Below are positions 1,545 to 40,355 of a DNA stretch of 64,000 bases, piece by piece. Each line of letters starts with the position of its first letter. Within the stretch, counting starts at the first letter, position 1. Under the pieces are notes generated by a model. The model did not search any database. It worked only from the letters and a program-made list of their open reading frames with translations, and had not been told where the DNA came from. The stretch covers positions 89,942 through 153,941 of the forward strand of contig JBAYGS010000001.1 in assembly GCA_041666545.1 (NCBI GenBank), in the 5' to 3' direction. Source of the DNA: Minisyncoccota bacterium (lineage in GTDB: Bacteria > Patescibacteriota > Minisyncoccia > Phycocordibacterales > JBAYGS01). The position numbers were made by a program, and so were the translations under genes.

Positions 1545-2426
1545 ATGAAGAACCTAATTAAAGTTTTATTTTTACTGGTCGTAACAGCACTCCTGGCCAC
1601 GGGCTCCGATTTGGCCAGAGCCGAAAATTTACCCGTCACTATTTCGATTGATGCGGCTGGCAGCATTAAGCTTGGCGGGGTCAAAGTTGTTCAGGTGGCC
1701 GGTACAACTTTTTATGCTCGCACCACCTGGGGCAATTCATTCATCCGCTACATCATAAAGACCGATTCTGACACGGTTTTCACTCGCCATTTTGGCGGAC
1801 CGGCCGTAGTCGGCGAAGTCGTGGCCGATCATTTTCTAAACCTGGAGGGTTACCTCGACGCCTCGTCTGACACGATTTCAATTAAAGCCAAGACAATTCA
1901 GAATTTGTCACTGAATGACGAGAAATCAGCTTTTTCCGGTAAGGTCAAAAGTTTGAATCTGGCCAACTCGCAATTTACCCTAACTGACAAAACCAAGGGT
2001 GACATCACGGTCGCGCTTGGTTCCGACACTTCAATAATTCGAAATGGTCGAGTCATCGACCGCAGTATTTTGAAAGTTGGGGATACAATTACCAAAGCTG
2101 ACGGTACCTACGATATTCCGAAAAAAATTCTGACCGCTAAAAATTTGGAAGTCTACCTAAACAGGAGTATGTTTTGGCCAAAAAATTTTCAAGGCGTTTT
2201 GAGGCGTCTGGATTCAACCACTTTACCGACCCAGGCAACAATCGCCATCGCCGGCACCGATTATACGGTAAAATTGCCGACTGATATTTTGATTCTGGAC
2301 AACAAGAAAAACAAAACGAAGTTGGGGCGATATTTGGAAGGGGACACGGTCCGCGTTTACGGCGCCATCCAAGAAGACGATTTTTCACTAATTATTGCAG
2401 AGGTAATTCGAAATATTGATCTCTAG
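1545..2426 (+). CDS. secreted hypothetical protein
   Basis: N-terminal signal peptide MKNLIKVLFLLVVTALLATGSDLARA. No recognisable catalytic motif. Confidence 0.55.
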   Translation: MKNLIKVLFLLVVTALLATGSDLARAENLPVTISIDAAGSIKLGGVKVVQVAGTTFYARTTWGNSFIRYIIKTDSDTVFTRHFGGPAVVGEVVADHFLNLEGYLDASSDTISIKAKTIQNLSLNDEKSAFSGKVKSLNLANSQFTLTDKTKGDITVALGSDTSIIRNGRVIDRSILKVGDTITKADGTYDIPKKILTAKNLEVYLNRSMFWPKNFQGVLRRLDSTTLPTQATIAIAGTDYTVKLPTDILILDNKKNKTKLGRYLEGDTVRVYGAIQEDDFSLIIAEVIRNIDL

Positions 2427-2622
2427 AGCTTTCCGGTGCTAAAAGATTTTTGGTCCAGCTCGACCCTAATTATTGGCTTAAAATCGGGGCGGTTTCACTG
2501 ATGGCCCGAAAACCGGCTATTCTATTGACATTTTTGGACAATTAGTATATACAAAGTACAGAATGCTGAGCATCAATTTGCTTGGTTAGGAGACCTTTAA
2601 CAACAAAAAGAAAGGCTAGTAT

Positions 2623-3843
2623 ATGCACGTTTCAATTGCAACTGCACCAGGTTCGGCCCATATCAACCCGGGCCAACCCGGTAAGATCAATAACCAGGAT
2701 GTGGTTTTGCGAATCGACCGACCGGATGGTCTGGTCGCCGTCCTCTGTGACGGTTGCGGTTCGCAGCCAAATTCTGCGACCGGCGCCGATATCGGTGCCA
2801 AACTGGTCGCGAAGGCGCTTACAAGTCAGCTCGACCGAGGGGTCGTGCCGGACAAGCTCGACTGGGAGCAAGTAGAATCGGAAGTCTGTGAGCAAATCGC
2901 GGCAATTGCGAAGACGATGACCCGAGGAGATCAGAGGGCCGATTTCGAGAAAACAATCGAATCGACCTTTCTCTTCACGATTATCGCTCTCGTGATTGCT
3001 GGTGATGCGGTTGCAGTGGCTCATTTGGGCGACGGGGTTTTGATTGTTGAAGATGACGCGACCATTTTGGATCCGCCTATCAAGAACAGTCCGCCCTATC
3101 TGGCCTACAATCTGCTCACTAAGACCGCCTATCACGATCCGAATCTGGTGAAGCATCTAAGCTTCACCGTCTTTGTCGCCTTCGACCTCAAGAAACTTGA
3201 AAAGGGTTTGGTTGTGGCGACTGATGGTTTCAAGCCACTTGTCGGCGAGGATTTCCATCATCCGTCTTTAGTTCAGAAGACCAACCTGCAACGCTGGCTC
3301 AACATCCACACAGCCGAGCGAATCGAATCGGGCACGTTTGTTCCCGGGCAGTGTCGCGATGATGTCAGTCTGGTGATTGCCCGCTCTGATGAGGCTCAGA
3401 ATAAGCTTCTGGCTGCGCGTCATGAGATGGTGGTTCTCAAAGGCCAGATCACGAAACTGACTGGCAAGGTTGATGATCTGACCGCCAAGCTCGCTACGAC
3501 CACTGCCGAGGCGAAGGCGTTCGAAGAAGAATGCACAAGCCTCGAAGCTGAAGTCAAAAGGCTAAAAAGGGAGCTCGGCAAGCTTGAAGCTCTGTCGGAA
3601 ATGGCACCGAAACTTTTGGCTAAGGCCAAGGAGTTTGATGGTGTCACCGGACGAGGACAACTTCGGCGTCTCGCCACAGAACTGGTTGAACTGACCAGGG
3701 TCAAGAAGGTGACAGTGAGGCCTCCGGGCTTCCTGGGCACAATCGGTAGCCTACTTTCCGGCAAACCGGCTTCGTCAACCAAAATCGTTGTTGAAGACGA
3801 TGGTGGTGATCCCGGCGGTACGTTTATTACGACCTGTGGCTAG
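2623..3843 (+). CDS. PP2C-family protein phosphatase with C-terminal coiled-coil (TerY-P-like triad member)
   Basis: VAVLCDGCGS and VVATDGF are PP2C metal-binding motifs. The C-terminal heptad-rich region KLTGKVDDLTAKLATTTAEAKAFEEECTSLEAEVKRLKRELGKLEAL is a coiled coil. Upstream promoter: TTGACA-N15-TATATA. Confidence 0.6.
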   Translation: MHVSIATAPGSAHINPGQPGKINNQDVVLRIDRPDGLVAVLCDGCGSQPNSATGADIGAKLVAKALTSQLDRGVVPDKLDWEQVESEVCEQIAAIAKTMTRGDQRADFEKTIESTFLFTIIALVIAGDAVAVAHLGDGVLIVEDDATILDPPIKNSPPYLAYNLLTKTAYHDPNLVKHLSFTVFVAFDLKKLEKGLVVATDGFKPLVGEDFHHPSLVQKTNLQRWLNIHTAERIESGTFVPGQCRDDVSLVIARSDEAQNKLLAARHEMVVLKGQITKLTGKVDDLTAKLATTTAEAKAFEEECTSLEAEVKRLKRELGKLEALSEMAPKLLAKAKEFDGVTGRGQLRRLATELVELTRVKKVTVRPPGFLGTIGSLLSGKPASSTKIVVEDDGGDPGGTFITTCG

Positions 3844-5800: not shown

Positions 5801-5850
5801 ATATTTCTTAATATATCTTCAATCTCCGATTTTTTAGCCACAATCCCCAC

Positions 5851-5886: not shown

Positions 5887-5977
5887 TCGTAAGTACCCGT
5901 CTAATGCCGAGTTTCGATTTCTCGAGCAATCGGTTATACTGTAGGCATAGTAAATAAACTAACTAAAAATTAAAAAT

Positions 5978-6526: not shown

Positions 6527-6672
6527 CGAGCAATAACCAATAACCAAGAGACGATAACCAAGTCCGAACGCGTAGTCATCAATTGGAATTTTGATTCATT
6601 GAATATTGTTTGGAGCTTGTTTCTTGATTATTGGTTATTTTGCAAAAACTTTGATTTAGTTTTTCACCTCTT

Positions 6673-7764
6673 ATGTCCATAATCATTTTTCTAATAATTC
6701 TCGCCGTGCTAATTTTTGTCCATGAATTAGGGCATTTTTTGATTGCCAAAAAATCCGGTATTAGAGTGGACGAATTTGCTATCGGCTTTCCGCCGAAAAT
6801 TTTCGCCTGGCAAAGAGGTGAAACTAAGTACACCATCAATCTGATACCCTTCGGCGGTTTCGTAAAAATTTTCGGCGAAAACCCTGACGATGAATCAATT
6901 TCCGGCCCCGACTCCGCCCGAAGTTTTGTAAATAAGAACCGTGGCATTCAGGCGGGGGTTCTGATTGCCGGCATCCTCTTCAACTTACTTTTTGCCTGGA
7001 TTTTAATTTCCGGCAGTTTAAGCTTAGGTCTTAACACTTCCGTTTCCGGTTATGAAAAATACTCGCCGGACGCCAAGGTTTTGGTTGTCTCAGTTCTGCC
7101 GAATTCGCCAGCCTTCAGAGCCGGTCTTCAGGCGGGGGATAAAATCGAAAATCTTTCAATTGGCGCTAATCAATTATCCAAACTTACGGTTGCCGACACT
7201 CAAAATTTCATTTTCAATTCCAACGGGACACCCATCAAAATCGCGGCAACTCGAGGGATGGAGAAGCTTGACCTAACAGTTTTACCGGAGGCGGGGATTG
7301 TGCCAGACAAAATGGCTATCGGGGTTTCTCTCGATCTGGTTGGCACCCTGCGACTGCCAATTCACCGGGCAATTTATGAAGGTGCCAAAATTACTGCGAG
7401 CCTGACAAAGGAAACAGCTATCGGCCTGGCTAAATTTGTCTATCAGATTTTTGCCGGCTCAGCTGATTTTTCTCAGGTAGCCGGGCCAGTAGGAATCGTC
7501 GGTTTAGTTGGTGGCGCCGCCAAGTCCGGCCTATCATACCTCTTAACCTTTACAGCTTTTATCTCTATTAACCTAGCCGTAATCAATCTGGTTCCTTTTC
7601 CAGCGCTCGATGGTGGTCGCTTACTTTTCGTCGCTATCGAAGCGATTCGCCGAAAAAATATTAATCCCAAAATTGCCAATATTGTAAACGGCATCGGTTT
7701 TGCCATTTTAATTCTCCTAATGATTTTGGTGACCTATCACGATATTGCCAAACTTGTCAGCTAG
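6673..7764 (+). CDS. rseP: RIP zinc metalloprotease RseP (site-2 protease, M50) with PDZ domain
   Basis: HELGHF HExxH motif in TM1, a central PDZ-like segment, and the C-terminal LDGG motif. Confidence 0.85.
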   Translation: MSIIIFLIILAVLIFVHELGHFLIAKKSGIRVDEFAIGFPPKIFAWQRGETKYTINLIPFGGFVKIFGENPDDESISGPDSARSFVNKNRGIQAGVLIAGILFNLLFAWILISGSLSLGLNTSVSGYEKYSPDAKVLVVSVLPNSPAFRAGLQAGDKIENLSIGANQLSKLTVADTQNFIFNSNGTPIKIAATRGMEKLDLTVLPEAGIVPDKMAIGVSLDLVGTLRLPIHRAIYEGAKITASLTKETAIGLAKFVYQIFAGSADFSQVAGPVGIVGLVGGAAKSGLSYLLTFTAFISINLAVINLVPFPALDGGRLLFVAIEAIRRKNINPKIANIVNGIGFAILILLMILVTYHDIAKLVS

Positions 7765-24123: not shown

Positions 24124-24609
24124 ATGTACCCAAAAAAGCAAACGAAAATCATCGAAGATTTTTACGATACAGACCAACAATCTATTAAGCTATTTAGACT
24201 AGGGAAGTTGTCTGGACCAGAATTAGAAAAAATAAACCAAGAAAGCACAGAGACACTTAAGCAGATTATCGCTGAATATGGTTTTCCGTTTAGAAACGTG
24301 GCCTCAGAAAAGGCCTACTTAAGCGCCTTTTTAATTACACAGCACTCCTGCGACCACGGCTTTATGGGCAAGGTAATTGAAATATTTTTAAAAGCAAACA
24401 ATGAGCAGATTCGTCGAAAGGATTTGGGGTATCTGATTGACCGACTGAGAATTTTAAAAAATCTCCCCCAGCTCTACGGCACGCAATACAAGAAAAATGG
24501 CGACGATGTTCAGTTCCTGCCAATCGAGGACGAGGCAAACCTAGAAAAACGCCGCGCCGATTTGGAAATGGGCAGTTGGGACGATTATAAAAAACTAATT
24601 CGCGGTTAG
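24124..24609 (+). CDS. hypothetical protein
   Basis: 161-aa ORF immediately downstream of the repeated operator/promoter. Confidence 0.5.
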   Translation: MYPKKQTKIIEDFYDTDQQSIKLFRLGKLSGPELEKINQESTETLKQIIAEYGFPFRNVASEKAYLSAFLITQHSCDHGFMGKVIEIFLKANNEQIRRKDLGYLIDRLRILKNLPQLYGTQYKKNGDDVQFLPIEDEANLEKRRADLEMGSWDDYKKLIRG

Positions 24610-27013: not shown

Positions 27014-27829
27014 ATGAATTTCGAAGAGCAGTTTCGGAAAAAATTTTCAGTAACTGTCCGCGGTAAAAACATTTACTTTGTGGATGTTGCCCCAAATCAA
27101 GCGGTCGAGGTGCCGATTTTTTTGGGACCCGGTTGGGGAGAGACACCGAATACCTTTAAGGATACCATCCGGGTGTTATTTGAGGCCGGATTTCGGGTTT
27201 TATGTGTTGAACATTCAAGGCAGGATCTGAAATTGATTACAAAGGGCAATTTGCCTCATCTGGAATTACAAAAAGCTGAGACTATCCTGCAAATACTGGA
27301 GGCGCAGAAAGTGGACGCAGTCAGCCTGATTGCTCATTCTGAAGGAGCTATTAATTGTATTATATCGGCTTCGCTCCGGCCGGAACTTTTTCGGAACATG
27401 ATTCTAGTTGGACCCTGTGGCCTGATGCGAGAAGAGACATTCATTAAACTAGTTGGCCGTTTTATTCTGAACCTATTGGAGGGGGTGGCTAGAGCCGCTA
27501 GAGAACCGGCGGCCCGCGTTCGATTGTTGCGATCTGCTGAAGAAACCGCAAAATATTTTCTTAAGAACCCGATTATGGGCCTACTTGAGGGCGGAGCCAT
27601 TTCTCATACCAAGCTTTTGGTTCTTTTAGAAAAACTATACCGAAGCGGTCTCAAGGCTGTAATCATTCACGGCTCTGACGATTGGGTTTTCCCAATTAAA
27701 GGGATGCGAGACCTTAGAAATTTAAGCTACATAGACTTTCATTTGGTTAAAGGCGACCATCATGATATTTATGCCAATCCAAAAAATTACCTATCATTCT
27801 TTAAGGACAGTCTCGCTAAGACAAATTGA
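27014..27829 (+). CDS. alpha/beta-fold hydrolase
   Basis: Nucleophile elbow AHSEG, conserved Asp/His downstream. 271 aa. Confidence 0.65.
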   Translation: MNFEEQFRKKFSVTVRGKNIYFVDVAPNQAVEVPIFLGPGWGETPNTFKDTIRVLFEAGFRVLCVEHSRQDLKLITKGNLPHLELQKAETILQILEAQKVDAVSLIAHSEGAINCIISASLRPELFRNMILVGPCGLMREETFIKLVGRFILNLLEGVARAAREPAARVRLLRSAEETAKYFLKNPIMGLLEGGAISHTKLLVLLEKLYRSGLKAVIIHGSDDWVFPIKGMRDLRNLSYIDFHLVKGDHHDIYANPKNYLSFFKDSLAKTN

Positions 27830-27864: not shown

Positions 27865-28767
27865 TTGATATCATTGATTGATATGGAAAAATACTTATCG
27901 ACCGAAAATCTGGAAAGACATAGTCTTGGCGTAAAAGTCATTAGGATTTTTACTGTTCCTTTATTGAACAATCTACCCGCCTCCTTAGTCCAGAAAATGA
28001 TGAAAAAATCTAGCAAGGATGCCTCGGCCGTGGTAGAGAGGGGAGGATCGACTCATGCCCTCGAAGCCATGTATAGCCGCCACAGCCGGAGTATTTTTTC
28101 AAGAGGATTTTGGCAAGGACTGGCCGATAGTTTCTGGCATCATGTGATTTCTCAGCCAAAAGCGATTCGAAATCGGTTAAAAATTGTAGAGCTGGCGATT
28201 GAAAAGGAGCTTGTGAAAATAATCTCCGAGAAAAGTGTAGACACTGACCCCGTTAGGATTCTAAATGTTGGGGGCGGTTCGTCTCGAGCGATTATGCACG
28301 TTCTGAATCGAATCTTCCAAGACCACCCGAATGTTCAAATTAAGGTAACCAATATTGATAAAGATGCTCGAGCTATCGAGCTGGGTAAAAAGATTGCAGA
28401 GCAACAAAAGCTCGGCCACTGTTTTGAGTGGATTAATGACGATGCTCGTAATATCTCAAAACTGGTGAGCCCAGAATCATTCGACCTAGTTGAAATGGTT
28501 GGTTTGCTAGATTACTTTCAAAACGATCGAGGCACCCAAGTCATCGGACAAATCTATAATGCCCTCAAAGTTGGCGGTATGTTTATTGTCGCCAATGTTT
28601 TTCCGAATTCGGAAATGCCTTTTGTCTACAAGACTGGCTGGCCCAAAATGTACTACAAGACGCCTGAAGATATTCGCACGATTTTAAAGCAAAGCGGGTT
28701 TAACGCCGAACCCGACATTTTTACAGAGCCCCTGAAAGTTCATATAATAGGTGTTGTAAGAAAATAA
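27865..28767 (+). CDS. class I SAM-dependent methyltransferase
   Basis: Motif I ILNVGGGSSRA, acidic post-I residue, FIVANVF motif. Confidence 0.6.
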   Translation: MISLIDMEKYLSTENLERHSLGVKVIRIFTVPLLNNLPASLVQKMMKKSSKDASAVVERGGSTHALEAMYSRHSRSIFSRGFWQGLADSFWHHVISQPKAIRNRLKIVELAIEKELVKIISEKSVDTDPVRILNVGGGSSRAIMHVLNRIFQDHPNVQIKVTNIDKDARAIELGKKIAEQQKLGHCFEWINDDARNISKLVSPESFDLVEMVGLLDYFQNDRGTQVIGQIYNALKVGGMFIVANVFPNSEMPFVYKTGWPKMYYKTPEDIRTILKQSGFNAEPDIFTEPLKVHIIGVVRK

Positions 28768-28769
28768 TT

Positions 28770-30413
28770 ATGGAGATATTTGCGATATCGGGTTTAATCA
28801 ACGGGATTGTCGCCACCGCGTTCGGTGTTCTTGTTATTTTAAAAAACTGGAAGGATCGTTCGAACCAGTTATACTTTTTGATGACTGCAGCTCTAGCTCT
28901 CTGGTCTTTCAGCTATTGGCAGTGGCTTTTATCTAGTGACTACACAACCGCCCTCTTTTGGGTGCGCACCCTCTCTGTTGGATCATTGTTTATCCCAATT
29001 TTTTTCTTTCATTGGGTCATTCAGCTAACTAAAAATAGGACATATAACTGTGTTGTTCTAAAAATTGTCTACGCAATCGCCGTAATCATTATCTTTTTTG
29101 TAAATTCACCACTTTTTATTGCAAACCTAGAAGGTAAATCGATTTTTACCTTCTGGCCAAATGCCGGAATGGTGTATGACATTTATTTTTCTTATATTTA
29201 TGTCGGCTTAATTCTTTATACAATTTATATTTTGATCCGCTCGTATCGACTTGCCGCTGACAACGATCGCAAGGGACAGATTCTTTACATACTCATCGGA
29301 GCGATTCTTGGTTTTGGTGGCGGTCTGACAAATTTCCCACTTTGGTTCGGGATTCCTCTTCCGCCATATGGAAATTTTCTGGTCGCCGCCTTTCCATTTT
29401 TGCTAGGCTACTCAGTTTTAAAGTTTAAATTATTCGACGCAAAAACAATCGCCACCGAGCTCTTAGTTTTCTTCATCGAAATTATTCTACTTGTCCAAGC
29501 CGTTCTATCCAAGTCGGCTACTGAAGCAGTCCTCAAAGGGGGTCTTTTCATCGTTGTCGGAATCTTCGGCTATTTACTTATTAAAAGTGTGTATCGCGAA
29601 GTTGAGCAACGCCAACAAATCGAGCAATTGGCCGCTAAGCTTGAAGCGTCGAATGAGGCCCTGGAAGGGGTTAACAAAAATTTGGCGGTGGCGAATGAAA
29701 AGCTGAAGGAGTTGGATCAGCTGAAAAGTGAATTTGTGTCGCTGGCAACCCATCAAATCCGCGGCCCGCTTACCGCGATCAAGGGCTACGCGTCACTCAT
29801 TATGGAAGGAGATTACGGCCGAATTTCGGCCAAGGTGAAGGAGGCGCTCGACTATATTTATAAATCGACCGAATCACTTGTCCTCGTGGTTAGTGACTTC
29901 TTGGATGTCTCGCGCATCGAGCAGGGCCGAATGAAATATGATTTTAAAATTTTTGATTTTCGAGATTTGGTGAAAGAGATTGTCAATGAATTAAAACCGA
30001 ATATCGACAAAGCCGGCCTGAATTTTACTTTTGAATCCAAGGAGGAGGAAAAATTCCCAATCAACGGCGACCAGGTCAAACTCAAGCAGGTCATCGCCAA
30101 CATCATCGACAATTCGGTCAAATACACACCTAAAGGCTCCGTCAAAGTCTCCGTCACTAAGCATGGCAAGAAAATCAAGTTTGCCGTCAAGGATACGGGG
30201 GTGGGAATTTCGCCAGATACTCTGCCGAGACTCTTTGCCAAATTTAGCCGCGCCCAAGATGCCAGCTTGACCAACACTAGCGGCACAGGTCTCGGTTTGT
30301 ATCTCGCCAAAGCCATCATCGAAGCCCATCAGGGCAAAATCTGGGCCGAGTCGGAGGGGAAGGGGAAGGGTTCACAATTCTATGTCGAACTTGACGAAAC
30401 TAAGAAAATTTAG
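28770..30413 (+). CDS. sensor histidine kinase with N-terminal 7TM domain (no cognate response regulator in window)
   Basis: H-box HQIRGPLTAIKGY, N-box IIDNSVKYT, G1 DTGVGIS, G2 GTGLGLYLAK. Seven predicted TM helices. Confidence 0.85.
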   Translation: MEIFAISGLINGIVATAFGVLVILKNWKDRSNQLYFLMTAALALWSFSYWQWLLSSDYTTALFWVRTLSVGSLFIPIFFFHWVIQLTKNRTYNCVVLKIVYAIAVIIIFFVNSPLFIANLEGKSIFTFWPNAGMVYDIYFSYIYVGLILYTIYILIRSYRLAADNDRKGQILYILIGAILGFGGGLTNFPLWFGIPLPPYGNFLVAAFPFLLGYSVLKFKLFDAKTIATELLVFFIEIILLVQAVLSKSATEAVLKGGLFIVVGIFGYLLIKSVYREVEQRQQIEQLAAKLEASNEALEGVNKNLAVANEKLKELDQLKSEFVSLATHQIRGPLTAIKGYASLIMEGDYGRISAKVKEALDYIYKSTESLVLVVSDFLDVSRIEQGRMKYDFKIFDFRDLVKEIVNELKPNIDKAGLNFTFESKEEEKFPINGDQVKLKQVIANIIDNSVKYTPKGSVKVSVTKHGKKIKFAVKDTGVGISPDTLPRLFAKFSRAQDASLTNTSGTGLGLYLAKAIIEAHQGKIWAESEGKGKGSQFYVELDETKKI

Positions 30414-30483
30414 CTAGAATACAAGGGAACAGCCGATAGGTGTCGGATTTGCTCCAAAAAAACCCAAAATGAAAGGCGATTGT

Positions 30484-30633
30484 ATGGATTCCCAGGCCCA
30501 ACAACCCTTCATGTTCGGTTTCAAGGTTAGCGTCGACTTGAAAGAAGAGGTCGCTAACTCGCAGGCGTGTGGCGGTACCTACTACACCACAAGCTCCGGC
30601 GGAAGAGAAACCGAATATGATGAGGACCCGTAA
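30484..30633 (+). CDS. candidate graspetide (microviridin-like) precursor peptide
   Basis: 49-aa ORF absent from the track. Leader QQPFMFGF resembles the PFFARFL recognition motif. Core TYYTTSSGGRETEYDEDP is rich in Thr/Ser donors and Asp/Glu acceptors. RBS aaagg; alternative start at 30469. Confidence 0.4.
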   Translation: MDSQAQQPFMFGFKVSVDLKEEVANSQACGGTYYTTSSGGRETEYDEDP

Positions 30634-30678
30634 GTTTTGACGGAACAAGCACACACTTTGATCAGATCAGATTTCTAG

Positions 30679-31179
30679 TCAAAGTGTTTTTTTATTAAGT
30701 CTCACCAGTTTAGCTTTTATTTCCTTTAGGGTTGGGACATTAAACTCAATCCTTTCCGAGTCGGTCGTTTTTGGATCGATCGGAAACAGCTTCCACCTGC
30801 CGGTCTTAATGTTTCTCTGAAATTGAGTCCCGAATTTCTGCTTTAATCCTTGTTGGGTGAGAATTCGGTCTGTGACGGCAGCGAAAAGCCATTTCGCTGG
30901 TTTATAATTCCTTTCCATACTCCCATTGACAAGTCGCAAGGCAATTTTTGTGTCGGAGAGCTTGCCACTATGGTGAAATATCATAGCTGCGCAGTAAAAT
31001 TCCTTACCATTCTTTAGTTGTCCACTTTTAACTATCCGCTTAGCTTCTGCCAGTCGATAGTTGTCCCTCTTAACCATAAGAGCGAAGTCTTTTTCGAAAA
31101 GTTTCGCTTTTCTATCTCGTTGGCCAGCTAAGAACAGACCCACAATTTTACTCAATCTTTTCCTTGACATGTCTACCAT
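30679..31179 (-). CDS. hypothetical protein
   Basis: 166-aa ORF between the precursor candidate and the ATP-grasp gene. Confidence 0.45.
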   Translation of the reverse strand: MVDMSRKRLSKIVGLFLAGQRDRKAKLFEKDFALMVKRDNYRLAEAKRIVKSGQLKNGKEFYCAAMIFHHSGKLSDTKIALRLVNGSMERNYKPAKWLFAAVTDRILTQQGLKQKFGTQFQRNIKTGRWKLFPIDPKTTDSERIEFNVPTLKEIKAKLVRLNKKTL

Positions 31180-31231
31180 GCTATATTACTCTAATTTTGA
31201 AGTCAACCGAACATTCAAAAATTGAGGATTT

Positions 31232-32185
31232 ATGATTCTTATTCTAACCAAGTCCTACGACCCAACGGCAGATTTTGTCTGTGAAAAAGCAAAAATGCGC
31301 GGGATAGGAGTTCACAGGGTTGATCTGGACTCCTTGCCGAAAGAAGGAACAGTGTCGATCATGGGTAACGGCTCCTGGGCTATTGATGCCAACACCGGCA
31401 AAATCGATAGCAGGGAGATTAAAAGGGTGTGGCAAAGGCGAATTCCCACAATCAAAATGGGGTTTCCTGACCCAGAAGCAAACGAGTACGCGGAAAAAGA
31501 ATGGAGACTATTGTTTGAGTGGTGGATTAATTCACTTCCGGATGGCCGGGTGTTGGATCCCGAGCACCGGCTAAAATTCGCTTACAACAAACTCCTTCAG
31601 CTTCAGTGTGCGAAACGAGTGGGATTGACTGTTCCTGACACCTTGGTCACAACAGACAGGGTGCTAGTGGAGCAATTTTATGAAAAGCACGGTGGCATGA
31701 TTGTTGTCAAATCTCTTGGTGGTTTTGGTAAAGTCCATACCGATCGGCAAGAGTTTGAAGCGATCTATACGAGCCAAGTTACAGAAAAGGATTTGGCTAG
31801 ATTATCGGAATTGAAATGTGTGCCAGTTGTTTTCCAGACCTGTATCGAAAAACTCTACGAGATCAGGGCAACGGTCGTAGGTGATCAAATCTTCTCTTGC
31901 AAAATTGAGTCCCAAAAGAGCGAGAAAACTAAAATCGACTGGAGAAAATATGATTTCAAGAATGTGCCACATACTCAGATTGAATTACCACCCGCAATTA
32001 ATGAGAAAATTCTCTCTGTGATGAGCACCTTCGGAATTCACTTCGCCTCCTTTGATCTTGCGTTTGACCAGTCCGGCCAGTACATTTTTTTTGAAATGAA
32101 CCCTAATAGTCAATGGGTTTGGATTGAAAATCTCACCGGCATGCCGATAACCGAAGCGTTGCTAGACTATCTTAACTGCGACTAA
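31232..32185 (+). CDS. ATP-grasp peptide maturase (MvdD/MdnC-like graspetide ligase)
   Basis: Collinear blocks with microviridin MvdD: VWQRRI, KLLQLQCAKRVGL, VTEKDLARLSELKCVPVVFQ, IRATVVGDQIFS, IDWRK, YIFFEMNPNSQWVWIE. Confidence 0.7.
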   Translation: MILILTKSYDPTADFVCEKAKMRGIGVHRVDLDSLPKEGTVSIMGNGSWAIDANTGKIDSREIKRVWQRRIPTIKMGFPDPEANEYAEKEWRLLFEWWINSLPDGRVLDPEHRLKFAYNKLLQLQCAKRVGLTVPDTLVTTDRVLVEQFYEKHGGMIVVKSLGGFGKVHTDRQEFEAIYTSQVTEKDLARLSELKCVPVVFQTCIEKLYEIRATVVGDQIFSCKIESQKSEKTKIDWRKYDFKNVPHTQIELPPAINEKILSVMSTFGIHFASFDLAFDQSGQYIFFEMNPNSQWVWIENLTGMPITEALLDYLNCD

Positions 32186-32197
32186 AACAACCACGCA

Positions 32198-32224
32198 AAC
32201 CCGATGTATTTTGTCGGGTTTTTA
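32198..32224 (+). terminator. intrinsic terminator after ATP-grasp gene
   Basis: acccga-tgtattttg-tcgggt followed by ttttaaatttt. Confidence 0.6.
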
Positions 32225-32261: not shown

Positions 32262-32333
32262 ATCTGGGCCGAGTCGGAGGGCAAAGGCAAAGGCAGCCAG
32301 TTTTATGTGGAGTTGGAGGCTAAACCAGATTAG
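32262..32333 (+). pseudogene. histidine-kinase 3'-end remnant (IWAESEGKGKGSQFYVELEAKPD*)
   Basis: Translates to near-identity with the last 20 aa of the 28770..30413 kinase. No start codon and no upstream kinase body. Confidence 0.6.
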
Positions 32334-32528
32334 TAAATTTGGTCGCCCGAACCGTTCGGAACGGTTTTAGGGAGGCGAGGGATTAGTTGAGAAGTTAAAA
32401 AGCCCCGACGCTTGTCGCAAGGTCGGGACCCCGACTGAAACGCCGGGGTTTTGAAGTTGGGAGGTTTGGAAGTTTAGAAGGTAGTGGACTTATTGCGCAT
32501 CCAATTTCGCTGTGGTATTATTTACGAT

Positions 32529-32735
32529 ATGAGCACAATCGCTATTCCCAAAACAATAACTAAGGGGGAGGAACTAGTCATTATTCCTAGACGGGAGTAT
32601 GATCGCTTTTTAGCCATTATTTCCGGCAATGAAGAAATAAAAGGTGATGATGTTCTACGCTGGTCTCGAGAAGCTAAAAGACTTAAAAGAGCTGGTAAAT
32701 TACCTCTTCTGAACTCTCTTAAAAATCTTTTGTAA
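32529..32735 (+). CDS. Phd/YefM-like antitoxin
   Basis: Small acidic protein; VIIPRREYDRFL resembles the YefM core. Overlaps/abuts the downstream RelE-family toxin. The ORF is open from 32484. Confidence 0.45.
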   Translation: MSTIAIPKTITKGEELVIIPRREYDRFLAIISGNEEIKGDDVLRWSREAKRLKRAGKLPLLNSLKNLL

Positions 32736-32743: not shown

Positions 32744-32998
32744 ATGAAAATTTATTTTCATCCACGATTTGCAAAGTCATTTAGCAAATTGTCGACTACG
32801 CTCAAGGCAAGGGCAATCGATAGGGAAAAGATATTTCGAATTAATCCGTTTAATTCGAGTCTCGATACTCACAAACTTCACGGAAAATTAAGAAATCAAT
32901 GGAGTTTTTCGGTTAATAGAAAGTGTAGAATTATTTTTGAATTTGTCGACAAGAATGTCATATTCCTCGACATAGGGGACCACTCACTATATCAGTAA
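32744..32998 (+). CDS. RelE/ParE-family toxin
   Basis: HKLHGKLRNQWSFSVNRKCRIIFEFVDKNVIFLDIGDHSLY is the characteristic RelE/ParE C-terminal core. Confidence 0.7.
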   Translation: MKIYFHPRFAKSFSKLSTTLKARAIDREKIFRINPFNSSLDTHKLHGKLRNQWSFSVNRKCRIIFEFVDKNVIFLDIGDHSLYQ

Positions 32999-33007
32999 TT
33001 TTAGATT

Positions 33008-33112
33008 CTCGCCAAATCAATCATCGAAGCCCACCAAGGCAAAATCTGGGCCGAATCCGAGGGTAAAGGTAAGGGGAGTCAGTTTTATGTGGAGCTGGGG
33101 GCCAAGGAATAA
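33008..33112 (+). pseudogene. histidine-kinase 3'-end remnant (LAKSIIEAHQGKIWAESEGKGKGSQFYVELGAKE*)
   Basis: Near-identical at protein level to the last 35 aa of the intact kinase. No start codon. Confidence 0.6.
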
Positions 33113-34317: not shown

Positions 34318-35073
34318 TTAGAGCAACTTCTCAATATTACCTGTCAGATCCTTCACCCTTTTCCTTTTAGAAAGTCCGAGGGCGATTTCATAGATAGGCC
34401 GGTCCGAGGGCCGAAGGAGAATTGCTTGTCGCTCAAGCGAACGGAATCCACGGAGGTACTGGCGGCTGCGTGCAAACGCCAACCTGATCATTGCAGCTGT
34501 AGCATCTGAGAGGCATAGCTCTCGCTCGATGGTTGCATTTCCATGCAATTTTTCAAGTGTTGAGAGTTTTTGTTTTATCTCTTCAGTGCACAACTCAATG
34601 ATGTTTTTCGAGAGCAAAGCAGGATAGGGAATAAGTAACTCCCTCAAGCGGTCACCGGTGTCGGTTACGTCGTACAAAGTTTCAGCCGTAGCCAAATCTC
34701 CGCACAACGCCTCCGGCAACCAGTACCCGGTAGCCCATGAGCGATGTTGACCGCCCAGGTTCTTGCCCTTGATCCATCCTTCAACCTGCCGAACAAGTAG
34801 GGCCACATCGCAAACTGCGACACCACCCGTACCCGCTGGTAGATCAAAGCGTACGCTATCGTCGCACACGAAAAAGTTTCCATCAGGCCATCGTTTTCTC
34901 AGTAAAGATTCGATGATGGACGAATATGTCTCAATTCTACCCTCATCGCAACCTGCCAAGAGATCAATTTTGCCTTCCGACGAATTCCTCTTCCGTCCGA
35001 CACGTAAGAGCATTTTCATACCCTGCATCTCACGCAGAACGTGAGCAAGATCAGAGGTTACGCTACTTTTCAT
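34318..35073 (-). CDS. hypothetical protein (last gene of overlapping 4-gene operon)
   Basis: 4-nt start/stop overlap with the upstream AlaRS-like gene. GC-rich. No confident motif; possibly a nucleotidyltransferase-like fold. Confidence 0.45.
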   Translation of the reverse strand: MKSSVTSDLAHVLREMQGMKMLLRVGRKRNSSEGKIDLLAGCDEGRIETYSSIIESLLRKRWPDGNFFVCDDSVRFDLPAGTGGVAVCDVALLVRQVEGWIKGKNLGGQHRSWATGYWLPEALCGDLATAETLYDVTDTGDRLRELLIPYPALLSKNIIELCTEEIKQKLSTLEKLHGNATIERELCLSDATAAMIRLAFARSRQYLRGFRSLERQAILLRPSDRPIYEIALGLSKRKRVKDLTGNIEKLL

Positions 35074-36188
35074 AGCGCCCCCTTTCCGCGTTTCGCTTCC
35101 TCAAACCCGATTAAGGCCTTTGGAAAACCGAATGTGGATGCCAGATACTCGATGTCTGATTCGGTTAGAGGGCCATCCCTGTGGTAAACGAGCTTTTGAT
35201 ACTCTTTTCTCCCACGCTCAAGGCCTTTCTCGAATTTTGACACCTCTTCAGCAAATACGGTTTTCACCGTCTCGGCCGAAGACCACTGGTTTCCTGATAT
35301 CATGACAAACTCATCAAATGGAATCGATGCCTGCTGACAGAGGATGAATGCTTCTCGGATAAGTTTCCGAAGAACATAGTCCGCTGCCTTGTTTCCAGGC
35401 CGAAGCCCTTGTGATACCAGGATCACCGCCGCCTTGCCGAGATCGGCTAAGCGACACATGTTGGCTTGATCCTGAACTTTGGATCGTTTAGTGAGAGAGC
35501 TGACCACACCTACCCAGTTCGAGTTTTCATAGTCGCTTCGGCTGCACTCAACGGCAGTTACGATGCGATCAATACTAGCCCCTGAATCGGCAGCAATCAT
35601 CTCCAGCGGAGATTCAAAGAGGACTTCGCCTTGGAATTGGGTAAAGACCAAGTTCCAAAGTTCCATTGACTTCCCTGTGCCTGGATTTTGCCAAACAATC
35701 TCCGTACGAACGCCGCATCGGTTCCGAGTCGGTGTATAAGTGACGTTTCCATCATTGCTGATGATCCTAACACCTAGCCTTTCCCAGATTCTTTGAGACG
35801 TTTCATCTTGTGGGTGCACGGTCGCTGACAGTGTGCTGGGATTAATACCTAAGCACACCGTCAAATATCTCCATGCACTTTCGATCATCACATCCTTCAC
35901 TTCAGCTTCTTTGTCCTCGTAGAGGGAAAAGTGGCCAAGCATGTCGAATGCTAGATGATGCCTTCCTGAACGACCGATTTTCTCCCATCCATCAGTTCTC
36001 AAGCAGGTTTGCACCGAGACGACGCGACTACTTTTGGGAGATGTCCCATTAGAGATCGCGTCTTCGAATACAACTCCACCAGAGATGTTAAACAGGAGTT
36101 TCGGATTTGAACTTGCGATCGGAACACTGTCTTGCCACTTGAAACCGAAGGTCCCGAAGTGGCGCTTTATTTCAGCATACGACTTCAT
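35070..36188 (-). CDS. AlaRS aminoacylation-domain paralog (standalone, divergent)
   Basis: QTCLRTDG..HHLAFDMLGHFSL..IESAWRYLT..ELWNLVFTQFQ aligns with AlaRS QKCIRAGGKHNDLDDVG..HHTFFEMLGNFSFGDY..IQFAWELLT..EIWNIVFMQFNR. No editing or C-Ala domain. Confidence 0.6.
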   Translation of the reverse strand: MKSYAEIKRHFGTFGFKWQDSVPIASSNPKLLFNISGGVVFEDAISNGTSPKSSRVVSVQTCLRTDGWEKIGRSGRHHLAFDMLGHFSLYEDKEAEVKDVMIESAWRYLTVCLGINPSTLSATVHPQDETSQRIWERLGVRIISNDGNVTYTPTRNRCGVRTEIVWQNPGTGKSMELWNLVFTQFQGEVLFESPLEMIAADSGASIDRIVTAVECSRSDYENSNWVGVVSSLTKRSKVQDQANMCRLADLGKAAVILVSQGLRPGNKAADYVLRKLIREAFILCQQASIPFDEFVMISGNQWSSAETVKTVFAEEVSKFEKGLERGRKEYQKLVYHRDGPLTESDIEYLASTFGFPKALIGFEEAKRGKGAL

Positions 36189-37411
36189 GTGGAACCTCCC
36201 ATTGCCAAGTGTTTGAATACAGTCTGCCTGACTGCGTAGGTGAACTTGTTCATCACGGGATGAGTGACAAGTCCGTGGTTAGTGTCCCAACTTACGACAT
36301 GAGCCGGAATCCCGAGATTATCCAATATTGCCTGAGCACGTTCGATGTTCATGGAATATGCTGATCCATGAGCACAGATTTGCCGCTGAGCAAGAGGACA
36401 ACGAGACTCCTCACACTCGTGTCTGGCAAATGCCTGAACCGAAGTGATGCTAGGAATCTTGAGCATCCGAGTAAGCGCGCATGAGGATTTCAGGTATACT
36501 GGAACTCCAGAGAAGTGTTCAGCGCTCAAGGAAAAGATAAAGTCTATCAGATCTTGAGGCAGCATCTTCACATTGTCATTCTTAGGAATTTTTGGCATGG
36601 GAAGTTTGTGAATCTCCACCAGGCCATTTTCGATACCTTCAGTCCAACGCAATCCTCCAGGGATGATCATGTCAATGACGTTGCCATAGTGCTTTTCGAC
36701 CCAGAGCATCATCATTTCGATGCGATCCTTGTTTCCGCTCCATTCAGGAACGATCGGTCGCATGTACCATGCGATGGTGGCACCAGCTTCCTTTGCTTCT
36801 TCAGCATTCAGAAAGCGGTTGTTGTGAGCAGGTTCAATCGTATCAGGATTGTCTGCCCAGCACAGAGACAACATCAAGCCCCGCGTCGCATTTGTGATGC
36901 GGGCGATATCGAGCTTTCTCCCTTTCGGAACGCCACCTTTAGTGACGATCCAAAAGGGATTTCGCAGACCACGTTGCACGAATGCTTCCATGATCTCGAA
37001 TGTGCTATCTGTGACCGGTCCAGGAGCGAACGGTTCAGTGCTTGCGGTTCCGATGCTGATGATTGTCTCATTTGCAACGAAGAATGGATGCTTGATCAGT
37101 TCGTCGATGATTTGGTCAACGGTGAACTGATTGCGTCGCCTCGGTCTTTTCGGCATTGTGCCTTGATCAGCAAGATCCTGATTGGTGTCTTGCACGTGGC
37201 AGTATCTGCACTGCCACGAGCATCCAATCCAGAGATCAATACTCAGTGAGCTGTTAGACACACTGACGCACGAGAGGGGATGATTACTGTCAGGAACAAG
37301 AACTCCATACGTGTATTCACGCACAGAAAATTCTCGGCCCGTAGTCATCCCGTTGATTGTGACACGCGGTTCCGAACTGGCTGCCGCGAAGTATTCCTGT
37401 TTGGAATTCAT
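36185..37411 (-). CDS. radical SAM enzyme
   Basis: CSWQCRYC is the CxxxCxxC 4Fe-4S/SAM motif. 408 aa. Possibly SPL/COG1533-like. Overlaps both neighbours by 4 nt. Confidence 0.65.
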   Translation of the reverse strand: MNSKQEYFAAASSEPRVTINGMTTGREFSVREYTYGVLVPDSNHPLSCVSVSNSSLSIDLWIGCSWQCRYCHVQDTNQDLADQGTMPKRPRRRNQFTVDQIIDELIKHPFFVANETIISIGTASTEPFAPGPVTDSTFEIMEAFVQRGLRNPFWIVTKGGVPKGRKLDIARITNATRGLMLSLCWADNPDTIEPAHNNRFLNAEEAKEAGATIAWYMRPIVPEWSGNKDRIEMMMLWVEKHYGNVIDMIIPGGLRWTEGIENGLVEIHKLPMPKIPKNDNVKMLPQDLIDFIFSLSAEHFSGVPVYLKSSCALTRMLKIPSITSVQAFARHECEESRCPLAQRQICAHGSAYSMNIERAQAILDNLGIPAHVVSWDTNHGLVTHPVMNKFTYAVRQTVFKHLAMGGST

Positions 37412-38145
37412 GTGACAACTCCTTTCAAGTGGTTGATGTTGCGGTTTATTTGTTCTTCCGTCGTCATACCAATGACAACGGATGTTTTAAGCTGCAGGGC
37501 ATCTTTGACGAGCTGCTCGGCGGTGTGACTGGTAAGCAACTTACCCTGGCAGAAAAGACTTCTCAGAAGAATTTCCTTTTTCATCGCGAGTAAAGAAGGG
37601 AGCTGCTTAAGCACCCATTTTTGATTCCGATTGAAAGGAGCTTCGACAACATCAATGTAAGGCAAGACCTTATCACTGATGTCTGATGAAAAATCGTCTG
37701 GCAGAGAAATTCCTACCTTTTTAGCGATACCACTATCCTTCACCTCTTGCAGGTGCTGAAGAATAAACACTGCGTCTGACGACCATGAAGGAAGCCAGTT
37801 GTGCAGTAAGACTGTGTCGATCTGTGTTCTCCTGAGCCTACTCAGTGAGTTCTCTACACTTTGATCGAGATGATCACGCGAGTAGAATTCATTGATTGGA
37901 GCAGGAGCTTTCAAATCAGGTTTTTTGATCGCGGGAATTTTGGTCACAATGACCGCATCTTCCGGCAAGCATGAACCAAGTATCTCTTCAACTTCCCCTC
38001 CACCATAGACAGCCGCCGTATCAAAACGACGAATACCGTAGCTGATGGCGAAAAGTAGAAGCGATTCAATGTAGGCGGGGGACAGATTTTTGAACTGTCC
38101 TCCAAGTTGCCATGTGCCGAAGTAGAGCCGTTCAAACCATTTCAT
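37408..38145 (-). CDS. aldo/keto reductase
   Basis: GTWQLGG and FDTAAVYG N-terminal AKR signatures. Confidence 0.7.
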   Translation of the reverse strand: MKWFERLYFGTWQLGGQFKNLSPAYIESLLLFAISYGIRRFDTAAVYGGGEVEEILGSCLPEDAVIVTKIPAIKKPDLKAPAPINEFYSRDHLDQSVENSLSRLRRTQIDTVLLHNWLPSWSSDAVFILQHLQEVKDSGIAKKVGISLPDDFSSDISDKVLPYIDVVEAPFNRNQKWVLKQLPSLLAMKKEILLRSLFCQGKLLTSHTAEQLVKDALQLKTSVVIGMTTEEQINRNINHLKGVVT

Positions 38146-38310: not shown

Positions 38311-39603
38311 ATGAAACTGCCGTACAAGACAACAGAGGAAGTGCGCCAGACATTTCTGGGGCATTTTCTGAAACGTGATCATCGTCTCATCGAGCCATCA
38401 GGGATCATCCCAAAGAACGATCCGACCCTCATGTTCATTAACTCGGGCATGGCTCCGCTCAAGCCCTTCTTCACGGGCCAAGAGAAGCCCCCATCCCCAC
38501 GTCTGACGAATGTGCAGGACTGCATCAGGTTTGTGGATGTTGAAAGCGTCGGCGACTCTTATCACGGAACGAACTTTCGGATGATGGGGTCGTGGTCCTT
38601 CGGAGATTATTTCAAGGAACGAGCTATTGAGCTTGCCTTTGAACTCATTACCGACGGATTCGGAATCCCTGTTGACCGACTTTCTGCCACAGTATTCATG
38701 GCCGACGAAAGTCTACCCGGTGTGCCGAGCGATGAAGAGTCAGCCCGTATCTGGGAAAAGTTCCTGCCACGAGATCGTATCATTGGCCGACCGCCAGTCG
38801 ATAACTTCTGGGGTCCAGCTGGAACCAGTGGTCCATGTGGACCGTGCACTGAAGTTTTTTTTGATCGAGGTGAGGAATTCGCCGAGAAAAAAATCGACGA
38901 CGTGCTGGTTCCTGGGCGGCACATTGAGATCTGGAATGCCGGAGTGTTCATGCAATACTTCAAGGATGAGCAGGGGAATTTTTCCTCGCTTCCTATGAAG
39001 TGTGTGGATACAGGCGCAGGGCTCGAGCGTTTCGCAATGATTCTTCAGGATCGTGCTTCGATTCACGAAATCGATCAGTACGATTTGACCTATCAACTCA
39101 TCAATCAGCGCGTTGGTGATACGGCATGGACACGGGTCATACTTGATCATGTCAAGACCTCGATTCTGATGATTCGGGAAGGTATCGTCCCAAGCAACAC
39201 TCGGGAAGGGTATCTTCTCCGTCGTGCGCTTCGGCGTGCAATGATTGGTGTCTTCCTGCGGGGGATCAATCTGACCATTCTTCAGGAGTGGGCAGACTCC
39301 CTTAGTCAAGTGATTGATAACAAGGACCTGACCTTCCGTCAGAAATCTGTTATTGCTCACTGGCTCAGCGAGGAGCGTGACAGCTTCGAGAAGCTGATGC
39401 GTCGCAGCAGGAAGTATCTCGACAAGATCGTGGCCTCTAAGGAGTTGGATGCGCAACACGCATTCACTTTGAAAACCGGCATAGGCATCCCCGAAGATCT
39501 TTTGGAGGAATTCTGTGTTCGTCAAGGCATTCTGTTTCCGAAGGTTGAGTTCCTTCGACTTATCGGGGAACACCGGAACATCTCTCGTCGGCCGAAGAAG
39601 TAG
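38311..39603 (+). CDS. alaS: alanyl-tRNA synthetase, N-terminal aminoacylation + tRNA-recognition half only (430 aa)
   Basis: FINSGMAPLKPFF, QDCIRFVDVESVGDSYHGTNFRMMGSWSFGDYFK, GPCGPCTEVFFDRG, EIWNAGVFMQYF, VDTGAGLERFAMILQ. Ends with a strong terminator at 39622-39653. No editing or C-Ala domains. Confidence 0.8.
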   Translation: MKLPYKTTEEVRQTFLGHFLKRDHRLIEPSGIIPKNDPTLMFINSGMAPLKPFFTGQEKPPSPRLTNVQDCIRFVDVESVGDSYHGTNFRMMGSWSFGDYFKERAIELAFELITDGFGIPVDRLSATVFMADESLPGVPSDEESARIWEKFLPRDRIIGRPPVDNFWGPAGTSGPCGPCTEVFFDRGEEFAEKKIDDVLVPGRHIEIWNAGVFMQYFKDEQGNFSSLPMKCVDTGAGLERFAMILQDRASIHEIDQYDLTYQLINQRVGDTAWTRVILDHVKTSILMIREGIVPSNTREGYLLRRALRRAMIGVFLRGINLTILQEWADSLSQVIDNKDLTFRQKSVIAHWLSEERDSFEKLMRRSRKYLDKIVASKELDAQHAFTLKTGIGIPEDLLEEFCVRQGILFPKVEFLRLIGEHRNISRRPKK

Positions 39604-39741
39604 TTCTTTCGGCAACAAACAAGCCCACCTCGTTCATATCGGGGTGGGCTTTTATTTTGCTACCCCCAAGTCATCCAGAGATGATTTTTGTTAAAAGGTT
39701 ATCTTGAGTTTCCCATCGGTTCCATTCGAAGGTAGGATCGG

Positions 39742-39807
39742 ACCGAATCCGAAGGTAAGGGCAAGGGTAGCCAATTCTATGTGGAGGTTGAGGAAGCAAG
39801 GGATTAG
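39742..39807 (+). pseudogene. histidine-kinase 3'-end remnant (TESEGKGKGSQFYVEVEEARD*)
   Basis: Third degenerate copy of the kinase C-terminus. Followed by the junction motif agggattagttgagaagtt shared with the 32262 remnant. Confidence 0.55.
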
Positions 39808-39904: not shown

Positions 39905-40150
39905 ATGATTTCAGAATTTGTTGAAAATAAGCTTAAAAATGCTCTATATAAAATCCTAGAAGACAAGACCTACTTTGGCGAAATCAAAGGGGTTAAGGGT
40001 GTTTGGGCAAATGCCAAAACCCTTGAGTCTTGTCGGGCAGAGCTCCGTGAGGTGCTTGAGGATTGGATTTTACTGCAAGTGCGAAACGGAAACAAAATCT
40101 CCGGCTTACCACTGAGTTTCGATCGACGCAAAGATTTTTCCTATGCCTAG
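39905..40150 (+). CDS. hicB: HicB-family antitoxin
   Basis: UPF0150-like small protein (EIKGVKGVWANAKTLESCRAELREVLEDWILL) overlapping the downstream HicA. Confidence 0.55.
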   Translation: MISEFVENKLKNALYKILEDKTYFGEIKGVKGVWANAKTLESCRAELREVLEDWILLQVRNGNKISGLPLSFDRRKDFSYA

Positions 40151-40355
40151 GAACATCTCGCTTCGGATGTTAGTTAAAAAGTTTCGGGCACTGGGTTTTG
40201 ACGGCCCCTATTCCGGTAGTCGTCATCTTTTTATGGCCAAAAGGGATCTAAAAGTGAGAATCCCCAACCCACACAAAGGCGACATTTCAAAACATTTGGT
40301 AGCAGAGATACTTAGGCAGGCGGAAATTACAAGTGACGAATGGGAAAAAGCATAA
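40143..40355 (+). CDS. hicA: HicA-family toxin (mRNA interferase)
   Basis: KKFRALGFDGPYSGSRHLFMAKRDLKVRIPNPHKGDISKHLVAEILRQAEI matches the YcfA/HicA fold signature. Confidence 0.6.
   Translation: MPRNISLRMLVKKFRALGFDGPYSGSRHLFMAKRDLKVRIPNPHKGDISKHLVAEILRQAEITSDEWEKA

Follow-up and report, generated by a model that had tools for sequence, protein, structure and literature searches.

The question raised by this locus is whether a 49-residue open reading frame (ORF), lying close to a gene for an ATP-grasp protein on contig JBAYGS010000001.1, encodes the precursor of a graspetide (omega-ester peptide), and if so, to what kind of biosynthetic system the two genes belong. The stretch analysed, 64 kb in all and hereafter called the window, comes from a member of Candidatus Paceibacterota within the Candidate Phyla Radiation (CPR), where a protein encoded on a 341-kb contig of a metagenome-assembled genome is 100% identical to the ATP-grasp ligase of the window. 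Bacteria of the CPR are tiny episymbionts, for the most part uncultured, in which very few pathways of secondary metabolism have been recognised. Graspetides are among the few classes of ribosomally synthesised peptides modified after translation (RiPPs) predicted in them, and none of the graspetide papers compared here reports a chemically characterised CPR graspetide.

An initial interpretation made from the letters of the DNA (the sequence-only reading) had proposed a microviridin-type locus, with an unannotated precursor and a ligase separated by an opposite-strand gene regarded as atypical. Our analysis indicates that the locus is very probably a compact three-gene graspetide biosynthetic cassette in a CPR genome, of about 1.8 kb. 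It comprises the precursor gene (30484..30633, + strand; 49 aa plus stop), identified by profile, conservation and a GenBank record; a gene for a DUF6624-like accessory protein (30679..31179, - strand; 166 aa), recognised by a weak Pfam match, family alignment, an AlphaFold2 model and adjacency in relatives; and the gene for the graspetide ATP-grasp macrocyclase (31232..32185, + strand; 317 aa), assigned by Pfam, NCBIfam, PDB sequences and a fold search. All three ORFs were confirmed at these coordinates, intact and of full length. The DUF6624-like gene converges with that of the precursor and diverges from that of the ligase, from whose start codon its own is separated by 52 bp.

The ATP-grasp ligase

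Judged by its sequence and its predicted fold, the 317-aa protein, which has the GenBank locus tag WC250_01070, is a graspetide macrocyclase. Its residues 1-112 match the MvdD-type pre-ATP-grasp domain (PF21068) above the Pfam cutoff (6e-9), while the Pfam RimK match is sub-threshold (1.5e-3). Full-length NCBIfam matches were obtained to the SAV_5884 family (1e-64), MvdC (1e-59) and MvdD (8e-59), compared with 2e-14 for RimK and about 1e-3 for GshB (glutathione synthetase). Among PDB sequences the best match is MdnB (2.6e-44), followed by MdnC, AMdnB, CdnC, PruB and PsnB, with MdnB and MdnC at 1e-43 to 1e-44, and the first non-RiPP ligase, of LysX/ArgX type, appears only at 2.9e-5. The AlphaFold2 model (pLDDT 89) led to the same family in Foldseek, with a TM score of 0.86 to MdnC bound to MdnA and of 0.84 to CdnC; the top 31 chains are all graspetide macrocyclases, and RimK, LysX and ArgX follow at 0.62-0.69. 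The proposal that this protein is a microviridin-like ATP-grasp ligase, grouping with the MvdD/MdnC clade instead of RimK/GshB, was thus borne out.

The clade to which the ligase belongs shows 39-54% identity to the window protein. Across 15 orthologues 48 alignment columns are invariant, including D236-W-R238 and E288-x-N290, and the window ligase keeps all 48. Because its scores lie under the curated equivalog cutoffs for MvdC (202 vs 425) and MvdD (199 vs 475), the protein is not an orthologue of either one. The ATP-grasp profile gave a single match in the 64-kb window, and PADLOC defence models gave zero matches for the ligase or for either DUF6624 protein of the window.

The precursor gene and its family

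The 49-aa ORF begins with the ATG at 30484, ends with the TAA at 30631-30633 and encodes MDSQAQQPFMFGFKVSVDLKEEVANSQACGGTYYTTSSGGRETEYDEDP. An in-frame ATG at 30469 would give a product of 54 aa, with five extra residues. The start at 30484 is the likely one, because the ATG at 30469 is missing in the closest relative, locus L098, where it reads CCG, while a Shine-Dalgarno-like GAAAGG, located 7 nt upstream of 30484, is kept there. Conservation suggests a division of the product into a leader of residues 1-31 (30484-30576), with the putative recognition motif PFMFGF at residues 8-13 (30505-30522), and a core of residues 32-49, TYYTTSSGGRETEYDEDP (30577-30630). With seven Thr/Ser and six Asp/Glu among its 18 residues, the core has the Thr/Ser- and Asp/Glu-rich composition that the sequence-only reading had pointed out behind the leader motif; it contains zero Lys.

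The surroundings of ligase homologues were scanned in all six frames for small ORFs, and a small ORF of the same design was found in all close ligase homologue loci. Altogether there are 14 distinct precursor homologues, with a common PF(L/M)F.F leader, of the pattern P-F-h-h-x-h, and a [ST]-T-x5-[ED]-x3-D core. Members include those of loci L014 (...ELPFMLAFYEEVDLQNPSYCAAGGTSYSTNSGGRETEYDEDP), L002 (METTIPFLFGFFERVEIVKDSAKANVTEYSTSSGSRESGYDEDP), L011 (...VVPFLFGFFERVEIPKISPESPMATTYTTSSGGRESGYDDDP), L018 (...AVPFMFRFFETVQVPKISPECSMATQYTTSSGGRETEYDDDPDPE) and L005 (...QTPFLFRYREFVPEVPDAYYSNSTGCAGREDEYDD), and more remote ones were found in L007, L021, L012 and L009. The family alignment shows no variation at P8 and T36 and almost none at D46; only Ser or Thr is found at position 35, and only Glu or Asp at position 42. 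Conservation therefore singles out T35 (30586-30588), T36 (30589-30591), E42 (30607-30609) and D46 (30619-30621), all on the + strand, as putative ring residues.

An orthologous ATP-grasp gene adjoins the precursor in 13 of the 14 distinct family loci, L098 being the exception, and this conservation backs the proposal that the small ORF is a precursor gene. The count includes four loci that were reached from the peptide side, by a search of metagenome contigs, and in all four both the ligase and the partner gene are adjacent. A precursor profile was then trained on eight family peptides and run on the six-frame ORFs of loci fetched later. The training peptides' own scores (1e-18 to 1e-25) are expected by construction; independent matches were obtained in L018 (E 4e-20), L020 (2e-15) and L098 (1e-22). 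Except for L098, all matches to the profile lie within about 1 kb of an ATP-grasp homologue. As for the further copies of the peptide that the sequence-only reading had suggested searching for, the profile found none in the window beyond the known ORF: the 49-aa ORF is the sole match there (3.6e-23), and the runner-up is its own antisense strand (E 7.5).

The DNA of L098 is 81% identical to the window over the aligned positions 30241-31217, and within the precursor 18 codons differ, of which 14 differ synonymously and 4 non-synonymously. PFMFGF and residues 30-49 are free of non-synonymous changes. This ratio of 14:4 indicates that the precursor is under purifying selection, and on these comparisons the small ORF is a real gene evolving together with the ligase. 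In a neighbour-joining (NJ) tree computed without bootstrap support, the precursor family corresponds to one ATP-grasp clade. The description of the ORF as unannotated did not hold, since GenBank already lists it as hypothetical protein WC250_01080 (MFA6535925.1).

These results leave almost nothing of the explanation that the small ORF arose by chance next to a RimK/LysX-type ligase acting on a protein or a small molecule. The weak secondary matches to RimK (in both Pfam and NCBIfam) are what it has in its favour, but the models of RiPP maturases outscore them by about 45 to 50 orders of magnitude, PDB searches by fold and by sequence both rank graspetide macrocyclases first, and the ORF is conserved, evolves under purifying selection and keeps its synteny with the ligase in 13 loci. 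We consider this explanation effectively refuted.

In locus L011 the precursor is hidden in the public annotation by a tetratricopeptide repeat (TPR) gene call (2081..2902, - strand) that is over-extended N-terminally, in another frame, across the precursor ORF (2694..2852). A read-through fusion of the TPR protein and the precursor under genetic code 25 was considered and rejected, as the translation shows a different frame and hence an over-extended call.

The opposite-strand partner: DUF6624-like or TPR protein

The gene between precursor and ligase is not the oddity for which it had been taken. The same layout, with the precursor followed by an opposite-strand partner and then by the ligase, is also found in L014, with a DUF6624 partner, and in L007 and L021, with TPR partners. 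By local profiles a partner is directly adjacent in every family locus that could be assessed: it is of DUF6624 type in the window, L014, L001 and L009, and a TPR protein in eight loci (L005, L007, L011, L018, L020, L021, L102 and L103). The DUF6624-like gene is a conserved third component of this clade. Within the ligase clade of the precursor family the type of partner switches at least two times, according to the NJ tree without bootstrap support.

The 166-aa protein is best described, on the strength of its alignments, as a divergent DUF6624 subfamily. Of its 19 homologues two carry PF20329, and it aligns with a canonical DUF6624 paralogue encoded in the window at 24124..24609 (+ strand; Pfam 1.3e-19, 70.8 bits), with which it has the motifs FHH, TDR and QKFGTQ in common. 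Its invariant residues are H70, R105, Q114, G117, T118, Q119 and R143. In the AlphaFold2 model (pLDDT 93) the protein forms a bundle of helices plus a small beta hairpin at the C-terminus, and its structural resemblances are weak and confined to TPR-like repeat proteins. Homology between the DUF6624 and TPR partners was rejected, given an hhalign probability of 0.3% and no detectable sequence homology.

Because unrelated TPR proteins replace DUF6624 in sister loci, the DUF6624-like protein most likely serves the ligase as a helical-repeat partner or as a peptide-binding protein, and not as a classical enzyme. A tailoring or hydrolytic role keeps some plausibility, since a His, an Arg and the Gln-Gly-Thr-Gln residues are invariant. 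The exchange of DUF6624 for TPR in sister loci offers a natural experiment on whether DUF6624 is an enzyme or a partner/binding protein.

Two further arrangements of DUF6624 genes were observed. The paralogue at 24124..24609 lies about 6 kb upstream of the cassette with no ligase or precursor adjoining it, and in L099 a canonical and a divergent DUF6624 gene are both located just downstream of the ligase, with only a NUDIX gene between them.

Proposed mechanism

The 49-aa precursor would be made with an N-terminal leader whose PFMFGF motif fits the Phhx(1,2)h leader signature and would correspond to PFFARFL of microviridins. The leader helix carrying PFMFGF is expected, on the analogy of the MdnC-MdnA complex, to dock on the pre-ATP-grasp domain of the ligase. 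The ligase would then use ATP to activate Asp/Glu side-chain carboxylates of the core as acyl phosphates, as in the work on MdnC-MdnA and PsnB, and Thr/Ser hydroxyls would capture these to form macrolactones. Since the core has no Lys, only esters are predicted and lactams are not expected. The conserved [S/T]35, T36, E42 and D46 would imply at least two ester rings, for example T36-E42 (i,i+6) together with S/T35-D46. Inhibition of proteases by the mature peptide, as for microviridins, is only a guess. With a minimal cassette of three genes, a precursor family of 14 members and four ring-candidate residues, the locus is a straightforward target for heterologous expression.

Comparison with known graspetide systems

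Graspetide loci of CPR bacteria were predicted bioinformatically in two ATP-grasp branches by Makarova et al. 2022 (PMC8939145). The precursors of those loci have a Phhx(1,2)h leader in the first 30 aa and a TxxxTx(6-10)Dx(1-4)D core, and the loci encode TPR proteins and members of "cluster 23", an uncharacterised family in which His and Arg are conserved (PMC8939145). The window fits this description, with a core of T32-xxx-T36-x9-D46-x-D48 and a leader of P8-F-M-F-G-F13. In addition, "cluster 23" is the same family as DUF6624, as the alignment containing gi 1091068289 shows the DUF6624 motifs, and it includes the ligase-adjacent protein of the branch-1 Parcubacteria GW2011_GWA2_40_143, which corresponds to our locus L050. 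Like the 2022 loci, the window has a Parcubacteria/Paceibacterota host, a single MvdD-like ligase, a small precursor and an adjacent cluster 23 (DUF6624) or TPR protein, without a dedicated exporter. The L050 ligase is 32% identical to that of the window. A difference is that the ligase clade of the window stands apart from L050, the sole representative of branch 1 included, in an NJ tree without bootstrap made from a partial dataset. The strings YDEDP, YDDDP, SSGGRE, PFLFGF, PFLFRF and GREDEYDD are absent from the supplementary files of PMC8939145, including the per-cluster precursor alignments, in which gapped rows could hide a match. The window precursor family may therefore be new relative to the 2022 set.

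More recently, Carter et al. 2026 enlarged the set of graspetide groups from 24 to 43 and found DUF6624 to be frequent in groups 18, 20, 23 and 42 (PMC13097080). Group 42 consists of 22 biosynthetic gene clusters, 82% of them with DUF6624 and many from candidate phyla; the same authors suggested DUF6624 as a possible undiscovered biosynthetic enzyme and described partner-dependent graspetide synthetases demonstrated in other groups (PMC13097080). Group 42 resembles the window family in having a precursor whose leader carries a hydrophobic P-motif and whose short C-terminal core is rich in Thr and Asp, but its representative precursor, MKKNSTPKPLILDRLRQPIEDIYKGGEKAMEGFTTHGTPNDPDSGGTD, could not be aligned with the window family, and none of the loci analysed here encodes a relative of it.

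With regard to microviridin (MdnA with MdnB/MdnC; MvdE with MvdC/MvdD), the likeness is found in the ligase, as these are the best solved relatives (30-32% identity, TM 0.86), in the leader, where PFMFGF is a putative parallel of PFFARFL, and in the proposed i,i+6 Thr-to-acid spacing, which is that of the known microviridin T4-D10 ring. The two leader motifs have the pattern P-F-h-h-x-h in common but not the sequence. Microviridin cores carry the motif TxKxPSDx(E/D)(E/D), with the Lys for the lactam ring, whereas the window core has no Lys, no KYPSD and no such motif. The window has one ligase and not two, it lacks a GNAT acetyltransferase and an ABC exporter, and it has a DUF6624 partner, which to our knowledge is not part of the canonical mdn/mvd cluster. 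Thus, of the label "microviridin-type" given by the sequence-only reading, the graspetide ligase and precursor stand, while the single ligase, the core, the missing accessory genes and the scores below the MvdC and MvdD cutoffs speak against the rest; the locus is a graspetide with a partner protein and not a microviridin in the strict sense.

Rosaritide biosynthesis (MirB and MirC) offers a precedent, in which a strictly co-occurring non-ligase protein is needed for stability and activity of the ligase (PMC13097080); dependence on a partner in the window is putative. MirC differs in that it comes from Actinomycetota, has a PpiC-type chaperone domain and bears no relation to DUF6624 or TPR proteins.

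Loci of this kind were therefore already predicted in CPR bacteria in 2022 and 2026, and the window holds a new family member and not a new kind of system. It is a correct but expected instance, and the role of DUF6624/TPR and the pattern of cassettes at kinase ends described below are of more interest than the locus itself.

A more distant ligase, 35% identical to that of the window, is present in L016 (3558-8966) alongside genes for a TPR protein, an M16 peptidase and a YcaO/nitroreductase, and L016 may be a hybrid RiPP cluster.

A relative without an adjacent ligase

Several observations weigh against reading the locus as a three-gene graspetide cassette. The ligase scores below the curated NCBIfam cutoff of every named equivalog, including that of SAV_5884 (218 vs 350), and the 166-aa protein reaches 18.7 bits (E 1.2e-3) against Pfam DUF6624 (PF20329), under the gathering threshold of 27 bits. 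Neither a leader peptidase nor an exporter is encoded in the cassette. The functional equivalence of DUF6624-like and TPR partners is suggested by position alone, and the number and connectivity of the rings are predicted from conservation only. Finally, in the closest relative, L098 (JGI 3300009514, Ga0129284_10001541), positions 5964-6958 hold a precursor identical at 45 of 49 residues and a DUF6624-like protein 86% identical to that of the window, and no ATP-grasp gene is found in the 11-kb locus examined of the 15-kb contig. Homology between the window and L098 ends at 31217, which is 15 nt before the start of the ligase. Because L098 keeps the precursor and the DUF6624-like gene without an adjacent ATP-grasp gene, the module can apparently fall apart, or its ligase can be encoded elsewhere in the genome and act from there.

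L098 could be taken to mean that the precursor and the DUF6624-like gene are the core pair and that the ATP-grasp ligase is dispensable or acts in trans, in which case DUF6624 might process or bind the peptide. The invariant His, Arg, Gln and Thr of DUF6624 would agree with such a role, as would the suggestion that it is an undiscovered biosynthetic enzyme (PMC13097080). Nonetheless, a ligase is adjacent in the other 13 family loci, TPR proteins without DUF6624 motifs substitute in eight loci, and DUF6624 paralogues such as that at 24124..24609 also occur away from any precursor. Moreover, the L098 contig is just 15 kb long, so that a ligase elsewhere in that genome is possible. We regard a core pair of this kind as very unlikely.

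The same relative bears on whether the window locus is a decaying or silent remnant in a recombination-prone island, possibly no longer making a modified peptide. L098 has lost the adjacent ligase, the histidine kinase (HK) fragment flanking its precursor is decaying, and the island in the window holds HK 3'-end fragments and toxin-antitoxin cassettes. What argues against a remnant is that the three ORFs of the window are intact and of full length, that the precursor shows the 14:4 ratio with an unchanged core, that the ligase keeps all the residues invariant in its family, and that promoter-like and terminator-like sites bracket the genes. A remnant seems improbable to us, and a three-gene graspetide cassette is the reading that we retain.

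The promoter-like site is a candidate of sigma-70-like type at 30391..30420 on the + strand (TTGACG, 18 nt, TAGAAT; 10/12), identified by a consensus match only, which overlaps the last HK codons and lies 64 nt upstream of the precursor start; the region holds 5 promoter-like matches vs 2.4 +/- 1.6 in shuffled sequences. The terminator-like hairpin, also a consensus match only, has a 10-bp stem followed by a T run (32197..32221, + strand) and begins 12 nt past the ligase stop. Between 28000 and 34000 Rfam gave zero matches at the gathering threshold.

Histidine kinase 3' ends and possible cassette mobility

Directly upstream of the cassette is a gene for a 7TM-type HK with HisKA_7TM, HisKA and HATPase_c domains (28770..30413, + strand), and no response regulator was found among the neighbouring ORFs scanned. 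The last 70-110 nt of this gene are present four times in the window, in copies that differ mainly at third codon positions. The island that holds the cassette is hypervariable, and its layout has the look of a cassette array or an insertion hot spot. Copy 1 (30302-30413), ahead of the graspetide module, is the functional end. Copy 2 (32262-32333, + strand), just past the ligase terminator, closes the cassette on the right and directly precedes a HigB-type toxin-antitoxin pair, in which a HigB/RelE-like toxin is accompanied by an upstream 83-aa partner (32484..32735 with 32744..32998). Copy 3 (33007-33105) follows that pair, and copy 4 (39740-39800) directly precedes a HicAB pair composed of a UPF0150 (HicB-like) protein and a HicA toxin (39905..40150 with 40143..40355). 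Extended by the 47 nt that follow it (32262-32380), copy 2 shows 95% identity to the functional HK 3' end and terminator of L098.

In L098 the order of genes is HK, MNT/HepT, a decayed HK fragment, precursor, DUF6624 and HD_4. The HK proteins of the window (28770..30413) and of L098 (7757..9406) are only 55% identical, compared with 81-89% for the flanking HisRS, Trp/TyrRS and DUF6624 proteins, and this difference suggests replacement of the HK allele. Between the cassette and HisRS lie about 11 kb in the window and about 2 kb in L098.

Similar arrangements were found in other loci. L049 (Candidatus Ryanbacteria, MHNR01000021.1) has 119-nt direct repeats of an HK 3' end (3488-3606 and 5687-5805; 99% identical) that bracket exactly a module of about 2.1 kb containing precursor, ATP-grasp and TPR genes; these repeats are a signature of recent insertion or duplication. 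In L069 an HK fragment lies ahead of the ligase, after four unrelated genes, and in L023, L033, L072 and L102 the module has an intact HK end a short way upstream. Tyrosine-recombinase (phage integrase) genes adjoin the module in L009 (5862..6749) and L012 (95..1429), the latter accompanied by an HTH_17 excisionase-like gene.

The repeated HK 3' ends hint at movement of small accessory cassettes in streamlined CPR genomes. As a tentative and still doubtful proposal, the three-gene module with its interchangeable DUF6624/TPR partner could be an integrase-free cassette recruited to the 3' ends of 7TM HK genes in CPR bacteria, each insertion regenerating the kinase end and leaving a displaced one behind, so that integron-like arrays would build up beside toxin-antitoxin cassettes. 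The proposal is made because of the four copies in the window, the repeats of L049, the layout of L069 and L098, and the divergence of the HK relative to its flanks. Functional coupling, with the 7TM kinase sensing the graspetide, is a competing reading of the same association.

Neighbouring genes

The genes to the left of the cassette, encoding an alpha/beta hydrolase (27014..27829), an S-adenosylmethionine methyltransferase (27865..28767) and the HK, were considered as members of the cluster and excluded. None of the 13 further loci of the family encodes a hydrolase or a methyltransferase, and in L098 the place is taken by HAD and acyltransferase genes.

To the right, two ORFs with an alanyl-tRNA synthetase (AlaRS) catalytic domain are located within 34318..38145 (- strand) and 38311..39603 (+ strand). 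The AlaRS ORF of 372 aa seems to share an operon with genes for an aldo/keto reductase and for two unknown proteins of 251 and 408 aa, and that of 430 aa, which is followed by the fourth HK fragment, matches the N-terminal part of the domain model only. The two AlaRS ORFs may be split or paralogous.

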